Source of the DNA: Marine Group I thaumarchaeote
GTDB lineage: Archaea; Thermoproteota; Nitrososphaeria; Nitrososphaerales; Nitrosopumilaceae
Reading direction: 5' to 3'
DNA: 5,452 nucleotides
NCBI GenBank assembly: GCA_044358425.1
Contig: CP054849.1
Span: 722,099 to 727,550, forward strand
In this document: positions 1,124 to 2,750 of the stretch, in pieces
Position numbering within the stretch: the first letter of the stretch is position 1
Layout of the letters: each line of letters begins with the position of its first letter
The notes under the pieces: model-generated
The model's database searches: none
What the model saw: the letters and a program-made list of their open reading frames with translations, nothing else
Told to the model about the DNA's origin: nothing
Translations under genes and position numbers: made by a program

Positions 1124-1165
1124 AAAATTATAGTTGAAAAATGGACAAACTATGTCTTCCCTTAA

Positions 1166-1177
1166 GGGGGGTAAAAC
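1166..1177 (-). repeat. G6/C6 motif copy A (reads GTTTTACCCCCC on the - strand)
   Basis: + strand reads GGGGGGTAAAAC. It overlaps a perfect 10-bp palindrome CCCTTAAGGG at 1159-1168. AGGGGGGTA (1165-1173) is the inverted repeat of TACCCCCCT (1658-1666). Confidence 0.8.
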
Positions 1178-1336
1178 AACAAAATATTATCAAAAAACAA
1201 ATCATGTGATAATGTGATGAAATTTTTGTAAATGATATTATTTAAAAAATGAACAAAAATATCCATAAAAAAATATTTTTGAAAGTGAATGAACAAAATA
1301 GCAAATAATGATAAAAATACAAGATCATGCCTACGC

Positions 1337-1348
1337 GTTAAACCCCCC
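1337..1348 (+). repeat. G6/C6 motif copy B (GTTAAACCCCCC); left arm of a perfect 12-bp inverted repeat
   Basis: Exact reverse complement of 1405-1416, with a 56-nt spacer. Confidence 0.9.
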
Positions 1349-1404
1349 TATGAAAAAAGGAGTTTCAGGCATATGATGAAATTTTGGAAAACAGGTATTT
1401 TGAT

Positions 1405-1416
1405 GGGGGGTTTAAC
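1405..1416 (-). repeat. G6/C6 motif copy C (GGGGGGTTTAAC on +); right arm of the 12-bp inverted repeat
   Basis: Exact reverse complement of 1337-1348. Extended to 1406-1427, it is also an 18/22 Watson-Crick inverted match to 1492-1513. Confidence 0.9.
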
Positions 1417-1502
1417 ACTTATGCCTAGATGCAAAAAGCAAGTGTAATTCCACCAAGGTATCCCAACAAAGGATGGGCAATCTTTCTAAAGTAGGCGTAA
1501 AA

Positions 1503-1513
1503 GCTAAACCCCC
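1503..1513 (+). repeat. G6/C6 motif copy D (GCTAAACCCCC, degenerate)
   Basis: Matches copy B at 10 of 11 positions. With its upstream TAGGCGTAAAA it forms an imperfect 22-nt inverted repeat with 1406-1427. Confidence 0.75.
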
Positions 1514-1657
1514 ACAAATTAAGTGAATTTGTAGAAAAAATCCACAGAAATTGAGCAAATATTTCCCAAAAATGAATTTGAAAAGAAGTACAATCCAGGT
1601 AAAAAATAATTCAAAATAATGAAATTTATGAAAAAATAGTCAATTAATCGTTCCAAA

Positions 1658-1665
1658 TACCCCCC
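1658..1665 (+). repeat. G6/C6 motif copy E (TACCCCCC)
   Basis: CCCCCCTAT (1660-1668) directly repeats 1343-1351. TACCCCCCT is the inverted partner of 1165-1173. The following TATTTTGA (1666-1673) repeats 1396-1403. Confidence 0.75.
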
Positions 1666-1736
1666 TATTTTGACATAATTTTTCCCCTCCAATGTAAAAA
1701 ACTTCAAAATACCAAAACGAAAATTTACGTTGCAAC

Positions 1737-1743
1737 TATATAT
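1737..1743 (+). promoter_or_regulatory. TATA box (TATATAT) for the 1764 gene
   Basis: Sits at -27 to -21 relative to ATG 1764, consistent with an archaeal promoter driving a leaderless transcript. Confidence 0.4.
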
Positions 1744-1763
1744 CAAAAAGTGAGTGACAAATT

Positions 1764-2249: not shown

Positions 2250-2351
2250 TCGATAAATAATAAAAAATAAAAAAAGTGTCAAATTTTATTATAGTAAGCG
2301 TAGTATTGTGTGACTTTTACTACATAACAGATACTATTTTTGAAAAAAGTC

Positions 2352-2750
2352 ATGGCAATATCTAAAGCCAAAAGAGCTGAAGCAGCTAAGAAAGCAGCAA
2401 GAACTCGAAAGAGGAATGCAGCTAAGAAAGCAGCAGAAGCACTAAAGGCAGCAGCAGCTCGTAAGAGAAAGGCAGCAGCAACTCGAAGGAAGAATGCAGC
2501 TAAGAAAGCAGCACCAAAGAGAAAAACTGCAGCTAAGAAAAAGGCCGCTCCAAAACGTAAGGCAGCTAAAAAGAAAGCAGCACCAAAACGCAAAGCTGCA
2601 AAGAGAAAGGCCGCTCCAAAACGAAAAACTGCAGCTAAGAAAGCAGCTCCAAAGAGAAAGGCAGCTAAAAAGAAAGCAGCACCAAAACGTAAAGCTGCTC
2701 CAAAACGCAAAGCCGCTCCAAAGAGAAAGGCAGCTAAACGAAAACGTTAA
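2352..2750 (+). CDS. Extremely basic Lys/Ala/Arg/Pro-rich repeat protein (8 x AAPKRK), resembling a histone H1 tail; putative nucleic-acid-binding or chromatin protein
   Basis: The tracked ORF starts at TTG 2340; I prefer the in-frame ATG at 2352 (MAISKAKR...). The protein is about 132 aa with only 2 acidic residues (both E), no aromatics, and AAPKRK(T)AAKK(K) units. An oligo-T run follows the stop. The other two open frames over this repeat give implausible FGAA- or LQ-rich low-complexity products. Confidence 0.7.
   Translation: MAISKAKRAEAAKKAARTRKRNAAKKAAEALKAAAARKRKAAATRRKNAAKKAAPKRKTAAKKKAAPKRKAAKKKAAPKRKAAKRKAAPKRKTAAKKAAPKRKAAKKKAAPKRKAAPKRKAAPKRKAAKRKR
2508..2747 (+). repeat. In-frame imperfect tandem repeats (18-36 nt units) with a higher-order ~99-102-nt duplication
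   Basis: An exact 32-nt repeat AAGGCAGCTAAAAAGAAAGCAGCACCAAAACG occurs at 2559-2590 and 2658-2689, a 99-nt period. GAAAAACTGCAGCTAAGAAA occurs at 2521-2540 and 2623-2642. Confidence 0.9.

Follow-up and report, generated by a model that had tools for sequence, protein, structure and literature searches.

A length-exact intergenic element of Nitrosopumilaceae with three G-string boxes, a candidate site for DNA-binding proteins

Archaeal replication origins marked by origin recognition boxes (ORBs) carry boxes of 20-25 bp that end in a G/C homopolymer string and stand in both orientations, with an inverted pair around a short AT-rich spacer that holds a central motif, at a single locus conserved within the family. 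Xer/dif sites have two 11-nt imperfect inverted arms and a 6-nt spacer, and those with conserved flanks, such as plasmid cer/psi with about 180 bp of accessory sequence, are single-copy, strongly conserved intergenic DNA. The GC-rich non-coding RNA genes of AT-rich archaea form GC islands that are autonomous units conserved at the level of the family. Here, we describe an element of Nitrosopumilaceae that resembles each of these in part, found between the genes of a DUF2299 and a DUF4352 protein in a 5,452-nucleotide stretch of a Marine Group I thaumarchaeote (contig CP054849.1). This whole stretch, AT-rich DNA of a marine Nitrosopumilus-like archaeon, is called the window, and coordinates are window positions unless a related contig is named. 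Nitrosopumilaceae are among the most abundant archaea of the ocean, and to our knowledge little is known of the organisation of their chromosomes past a single mapped origin.

All of the features named above for ORB-type origins recur in the element. It departs from such origins in that no initiator gene lies nearby, its boxes are unrelated to the dyad repeats at the cdc6 gene of this lineage, the genes around it are convergent, and its G/C string directly abuts GYTMAA instead of following a TCCAnnGGAAAC dyad. With Xer/dif sites of the cer/psi kind, it shares single-copy, strongly conserved intergenic DNA, a putative fork-meeting location, and a size that fits a core plus accessory protein-binding sequences, but a convincing 11-6-11 core was not found in it. 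Like the GC-rich RNA genes, it is a GC island and an autonomous unit with family-level conservation (about 78% identity), but one that lacks covariation, general thermodynamic stability, a canonical B recognition element (BRE)/TATA promoter, and an Rfam family. No description of the element was found in the literature on the N. maritimus origin, thaumarchaeal non-coding RNAs or Xer/dif, and we rate it as a protein-binding box array with G-strings outside an origin. We know of hardly any documented chromosome-level cis-elements outside the origin in archaea; this one is a concrete candidate, being length-exact across the family, unique in the DNA examined, orientation-independent and placed where genes converge.

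Architecture and conservation of the element

The two genes are separated by a gap of 640 bp (1124-1763), and an earlier note on this DNA had drawn attention to its runs of G and C, namely G6 at 1166-1171 and 1405-1410, C6 at 1343-1348 and 1660-1665, and C5 at 1509-1513, in the contexts GTTTTACCCCCC (-), GTTAAACCCCCC (+), GTTAAACCCCCC (-), GCTAAACCCCC (+) and AATACCCCCC (+). These runs and contexts were recovered as described, as was a palindrome, CCCTTAAGGG, at 1159-1168, and the enrichment is indeed non-random, with 13 CCCCC/GGGGG matches in the window against 1.72 expected, a count reached by none of 200 shuffles. Nine of the 13 fall inside the gap. That such runs are common throughout the intergenic DNA, which the same note had named as the finding that would speak against it, was not seen in 58 related loci, where the density of runs of at least six is 8.6 per kb within the core of the element and 0.037 per kb at distances beyond 1 kb. 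The view of the five copies as one nested family did not survive, as the inner three form a conserved core and the outer two belong to a different motif.

The inner runs (1343, 1405 and 1509) terminate three boxes of 22-23 bp with the pattern TAGGC-N6-GYTMAA-C5-7, in the order forward, reverse, forward. They define a core of about 190 bp (about 1326-1513) that makes, together with its flanks, a unit of roughly 250 bp (about 1300-1540). Box A (1326-1348, plus strand; CATGCCTACGCGTTAAACCCCCC) has the consensus TATGCCTAGGCGTTAAAC6-7 in per-column counts from an alignment of 59 species, contains the palindrome GCCTAGGC, and ends in an invariant C-run. Box D (1405-1428, minus strand; GGGGGGTTTAACACTTATGCCTAG) has an invariant G-run that lies 61-63 bp past the box A C-run in nearly all species. 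It repeats the 23-bp motif of box G in reverse orientation, and the two are reverse complements at 19 of 23 positions in the window. The C-run of box G (1492-1513, plus strand; TAGGCGTAAAAGCTAAACCCCC) follows 104-105 bp past the box D G-run, and the TAGGC of this box is replaced by GTGCG in most species, whereas box D retains GCCTA. In all, the half-sites TAGGC/GCCTA occur six times in the element.

Boxes A(+) and D(-), an inverted pair, enclose a 56-bp AT-rich spacer that has its own conserved motif across the 59 species. Block B (1363-1371; TTTCAGGCA, consensus TTTAGGCA) supplies an additional TAGGC half-site, and block C (1376-1395; ATGAAATTTTGGAAAACAGG, consensus GTGAAATTTTCAAAATCAGG), within the AT-rich A-D spacer, conserves A-N2-TTTT-C-AAAA, with another TTTT at 1398-1401. 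Direct-repeat copies of block C are present in the window lineage at 1212-1232 and 1614-1634. The interval between boxes D and G holds block E (1438-1457; GCAAGTGTAATTCCACCAAG, consensus GCAACCnTAATTCCACCAAG) and block F (1462-1470; CCCAACAAA, consensus CCCAGCTAAA). Beyond the core, conservation continues upstream for about 45 bp (CTAAAAT..AATTTTACAAAAT) and downstream for about 30 bp (AAAGAAAAAA) and then ends. The upstream flank (1300-1325) reads GCAAATAATGATAAAAATACAAGAT in the window and CTAAAAT-N5-AATTTTACAAAAT in the family consensus, taken from an ungapped profile of 57 species, and the downstream flank (1532-1540) reads TAGAAAAAA, with the family consensus AAAAAATAAAGAAAAAA, a minus-strand oligo-T tract that faces the core. 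Most loci have a tract of T5 or more upstream on the plus strand and of A5 or more downstream, equivalent to T5 or more on the minus strand, which gives the unit inward-facing oligo-T tracts. The unit itself is a GC island (GC 0.34-0.42) inside an AT-rich spacer. The AT-rich stretch at 1178-1299 (GC 0.17-0.28) is conserved in close relatives only and has a T5 tract at 1273-1277 on the plus strand, 5′ of the unit.

Contigs that encode an identical DUF2299 protein keep the gap at about 640 bp, with 1124-1515 almost invariant and 1516-1660 variable. A scan of one genome per species gave 80 loci, and downstream of DUF2299 nearly all of them share a signature in which a C6-7 run is followed after 61-63 bp by a G6-8 run and after a further 104-105 bp by C5. 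The alignment of 59 distinct Nitrosopumilaceae species comprises 211 nt in 213 columns at 78% mean identity, with length differences limited to single-base changes of C-runs in three sequences, and the spacers vary freely in sequence while their length is preserved. Synteny and alignment in relatives, a comparison the earlier note had proposed, showed that at least 59 species keep the core, with the same gene on either side of it. The motif count it had proposed for the whole genome was made on 488 kb of loci only, where 155 of 158 matches to the box pattern G[CT]TNA[AC]CCCC fell in the core, a unique cluster. By an nhmmer profile, 82 of 93 loci have exactly one core; those that lack it are truncated or rearranged. 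The element can serve as a compact, highly conserved marker of the family.

The unit is an autonomous cassette, which is inverted between the same two genes in two lineages (L032/L042 and L060). There, the whole unit including its flanks is turned in place and the orientation of DUF2299 and DUF4352 is unchanged; the upstream flank travels with the core in the inverted copies (L060, L032). The unit lies about 70 to 2000 bp from DUF2299 and about 200 to 3200 bp from DUF4352, and additional small genes are inserted in between. DUF4352 has a TATA-type promoter of its own (1735-1745, plus strand; AACTATATATC), and this promoter (AACTATATA) remains beside DUF4352 when the element is separated from the gene or inverted. 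The variable distances and the separate promoter indicate that the unit is not the leader, promoter or operator of either neighbour. Several lineages (L046 5650-5800, L060 5680-5800) have a conserved small open reading frame (ORF), about 40 aa long (MNAFNIMLRHATKKYE...), in the interval from DUF2299 to the element; it is absent from the window. The element also coincides with a hotspot of metagenome assembly breaks and variable DNA. Among metagenome contigs (L094-L213), 17 of 120 have an end within 110 nt of box D on its A-D side, compared to 2 of 120 on the other side, a pile-up that is probably an effect of the A/D inverted repeat on assembly or coverage.

Candidate function and alternatives

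The gap is without a conserved ORF, in agreement with the earlier note, which had found no credible one. A coding reading of the core was rejected, given that every species has stop codons in all six frames and that variability has no 3-nt periodicity. Recognition of duplex DNA by proteins is indicated by the boxes in both orientations, the private flanks, the spacers of fixed length, and substitutions that are not compensated. Columns 24/97 of the potential A:D pairing hold A-T in 29 species and A-G in 28, and columns 97 and 190 of D:G change independently (GA22, TA19, TC10, GC6). A protein-binding array had been among the readings offered beforehand, and it is the best fit to the orientations, the fixed spacing and the uncompensated changes, although its version as an origin fails. 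Judged from the sequence, it is about an even call that the core is a cis-acting double-stranded DNA element, an assembly site for putative sequence-specific proteins.

In such an element, a double-stranded DNA-binding protein would read each box, with the C/G run as a polarity mark, as the G-string is in archaeal ORB elements, and the inverted A/D pair may bend, wrap or open the AT-rich spacer. More speculatively, the element could act in the terminus zone, in chromosome segregation, dimer resolution or domain organisation. The short, defined boxes are ready bait for the binding protein. Several points weigh against an assembly site of this kind. Neither a binding protein nor a demonstrable partner among the neighbouring genes was found; the predicted structure of DUF2299 is too poor (predicted local distance difference test, pLDDT, 43), and PDB and NCBIfam searches with this protein were uninformative. 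Several genomes with rearranged DUF2299 loci have no core within 5 kb, the single-copy status covers about 0.5-1 Mb of the loci examined, and the placement at a terminus draws only on local gene orientation and one metagenome-assembled genome (MAG) rearranged by insertion sequences (IS).

The origin version is contradicted by the cdc6 loci of the family, which have different ORBs, by the lack of a nearby cdc6, and by the convergent genes. With the Cdc6 protein of a Nitrosopumilus MAG (L041) as query, two Cdc6 clades were found in Nitrosopumilaceae. The cdc6 gene of clade I (L219, L220) lies between divergent DNA primase genes and an S8 peptidase gene, with an 810-bp spacer on one side and, on the other, a 1-kb spacer with three or four 25-bp dyad repeats, TTTACAnTTnnTAnGAAATGTAAA (L219 11477-11892; L220 3390-3810). 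This gene and its repeats are likely the ORB-type chromosomal origin of Nitrosopumilaceae, and the genes around it in L219 are divergent, with 10/10 on the minus strand to the left and 5/5 on the plus strand to the right. Clade II genes (ThiSF-cdc6-PGI; L214-L217) have 120-180 bp upstream, without repeats and without boxes. The ORB repeats, TTTACAnTT..GAAATGTAAA, do not occur in the window or the element loci, nor do the element boxes occur in any cdc6 locus. When all loci were scanned for Walker-A motifs, a single Cdc6-like gene came up, in the MAG L041. In this genome (5778-9231), DUF2299 is followed not by the element but by IS200/IS605 (TnpB, TnpA), an IS3 fragment, and a truncated second copy of cdc6-PGI with its closest relatives in the Cdc6 clade that adjoins the ORB repeats in L219 and L220; at a distance of 788 kb, the same contig also holds a cdc6 of the ThiSF-cdc6-PGI type.

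That the unit is an independent non-coding RNA gene, with the minus strand as the likelier one, is unlikely, though several of its features would suit one. Such a gene would start near the G-run of box G, end at the T4 tracts conserved on the left of box A, and act through its conserved primary sequence (as a protein scaffold, antisense or guide RNA) and not through a conserved fold; if the element is transcribed, this would be a new family-specific RNA under unusually strict sequence constraint. The autonomy of the cassette, with flanks kept on inversion, is what such a gene would show, as is its GC island, which resembles the non-coding RNA genes of AT-rich genomes. Conserved T-rich blocks lie at the places expected of a minus-strand promoter and terminator, and the minus strand of the window copy folds well (z -3.07 to -3.4). 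This stability is not general, however, as the core in 22 species has a mean folding z of -0.98 (plus strand) and -1.25 (minus strand), several of the values being positive. RNAalifold, run on both strands, recovered only the invariant pairing of the A/D arms, a helix in which 92.5% of cells pair but whose covariation score, 0.070, is the same as the mean of the shuffles, 246 of 500 of which reach it. A scan for covarying stacks of at least four pairs gave nothing credible, and the local hairpins of some clades are lost without compensation in whole other clades. The variable regions are constant in length, which is unusual for RNA loops. On neither side of the unit does any of the hexamers TTAAAT, TATATA, TTTAAA and TTATAT hold a fixed position, unlike at the neighbouring protein genes and at the tRNA-Asn gene 0.8 kb upstream, which has a sharply conserved promoter (GCAAAGATTAAATCAC). 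An Rfam 15 scan of the whole window returned nothing relevant, and a lax scan of 1280-1560 returned only sub-threshold C/D small nucleolar RNA noise. Searches of the window for tRNA and tmRNA also found none, and the suggestion of a structured RNA in the earlier note is not supported by these data. A C/D box small RNA was considered and rejected because the C/D boxes are not kept, with AUGAUGA in the window lineage only, GUGAAA, ACCAUU or GCCAUA elsewhere, and no CUGA at the 3′ side, and because the Rfam matches lie far below the family thresholds.

Further explanations of the element are less likely. A transcription-factor hub for DUF2299, DUF4352 or the ArsR-type helix-turn-helix (HTH) gene 1.6 kb away would agree with the intergenic place, the six half-sites and the conserved HTH regulator in the syntenic block. 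It is distinctly unlikely given that the unit flips, lies at distances of 70-2000 and 200-3200 bp from its neighbours with genes inserted between, leaves DUF4352 with its own adjacent TATA promoter, and has a length-invariant layout of 190 bp that far exceeds the need of known archaeal operators. A secondary or dormant origin, or the array of a second Orc1/Cdc6 paralogue, with the boxes as ORBs and the A-D spacer as DNA unwinding element (DUE), we regard as very unlikely. The inverted boxes with terminal G/C strings around an AT-rich spacer with a central conserved motif are similar to the ORB2-DUE(ucm)-ORB3 arrangement of Sulfolobus oriC1 and to the haloarchaeal G-string ORBs (PMC12141716; PMC4010727), there are two Cdc6 clades of which the clade II gene has no adjoining repeats, and a cdc6 copy has landed beside DUF2299 in one MAG. 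On the other hand, there is no cdc6 among the called genes 6.5 kb left or 14 kb right of the element, the 25-bp repeats of clade I cdc6 and the boxes of the element do not occur at each other's loci, genes converge on the element and do not diverge from it, and N. maritimus is reported to have a single origin, at ORB repeats and a cdc gene (PMC5333045, PMC5797428). Barely credible is a mobile or selfish repeat, such as a miniature inverted-repeat transposable element (MITE), a repetitive extragenic palindrome (REP) or a palindrome-associated transposable element (PATE), or the decaying relic of an integrated element. The inverted repeats, the variable DNA on either side, the contig ends enriched in the A-D spacer (17/120 compared to 2/120), and the IS200/IS605 inserted at the site in L041 would be in keeping with it, but at least 59 species have the element as a single copy at a syntenic site, no other copies occur in 488 kb, it is under strong purifying selection without decay, and it has no match in a phage collection. 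The nested MITEs that the earlier note had also entertained are rejected by the single syntenic copy per locus and the concentration of motif matches in the core.

Position on the chromosome

About 16 genes upstream of the element, from the ribosomal protein operon and tRNA-Asn on to DUF2299, are all on the plus strand, and the minus strand carries 13 of the 19 genes downstream. This pattern is the mirror image of that at the cdc6/ORB locus, making a fork-convergence (terminus) position plausible, and a place for the element in this zone is a plausible, if more speculative, extension of the assembly-site reading. The single long contig with both DUF2299 and the clade II cdc6 is that of the IS-rearranged MAG, with the 788 kb between them given above. 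We hold only tentatively that the element is a single-copy nucleoprotein site of three G-string boxes in the terminus zone opposite the cdc6/ORB origin. There, it might serve segregation, dimer resolution, fork arrest or domain organisation of the SMC type, with its boxes possibly read by the second Cdc6 paralogue or another factor. A search of the gap with the dif pattern (11-6-11) gave no match, and the best dif candidate, in blocks B-C (TTTAGGCATAA-TGTGAA-ATTTTCAAAAT), has weak dyad symmetry and a 'spacer' as conserved as the other columns.

Outer runs, neighbouring genes and related loci

The outer left run (1159-1177, minus strand; CCCTTAAGGGGGGTAAAAC) is found only in close relatives of the window and lies outside the conserved core, and the outer right run (1654-1672, plus strand; CAAATACCCCCCTATTTTG) is a copy of a second motif, AWACCCCCCTNTTT (GTTTTACCCCCC in close relatives). 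The position and presence of this motif depend on the lineage, as it lies at +273 to +318 in the window lineage and at -264 or -127 in others. The poly-G tract at 1166-1171 varies from 5 to 8 in length among near-identical contigs (same site in L002-L007), reflecting either slipped-strand variation or homopolymer sequencing error. In a viral contig (L218, IMGVR_UViG_3300024581_004043) with ORFs that carry no annotation, TTTCCTAGGGGGTAAACACTTA occurs at 480-520 and 745-785 in a repeat-rich non-coding region, and in the first copy the match to box D goes on as TGCCTA. The 21-nt match in this contig is probably fortuitous and may have arisen by chance from an 18-base pattern.

On the 5′ side of the gap, the DUF2299 gene (674-1123) is preceded by genes for a Zn-ribbon protein and a small membrane protein, and on the 3′ side the DUF4352 gene (1764-2249) is followed by those for a Lys/Ala-rich protein, PNPOx, an ArsR-type HTH protein and purC. 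The Lys/Ala-rich protein (2340-2750, plus strand; 136 aa) consists almost entirely of AKKAAPKRK-type repeats and resembles a histone H1 tail, with no Pfam or NCBIfam match. Its length is 121 or 132 aa in related contigs, and the gene is not called in L004. A perfect 22-bp palindrome, TTTCTAAATTCGAATTTAGAAA, is present in two identical copies just past gene ends (584-605 and 2798-2819; 0 expected by chance), one after the gene of the 75-aa membrane protein and the other where the Lys/Ala-rich and PNPOx genes converge. Related loci have a similar hairpin, TTTCTAAACTCGAGTTTTGAAA, after tRNA-Asn, and these palindromes are probably a family of terminator-like hairpins. The tRNA-Asn(GTT) gene itself lies between the ribosomal protein operon and the Zn-ribbon gene, just before the start of the window (L011 4133-4207 and about 35 loci). 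Its promoter block, GTCGCAAAGATTAAATCACTTTTGCCAAGG, is very strongly conserved and is a useful reference for stable-RNA promoters of Nitrosopumilaceae.

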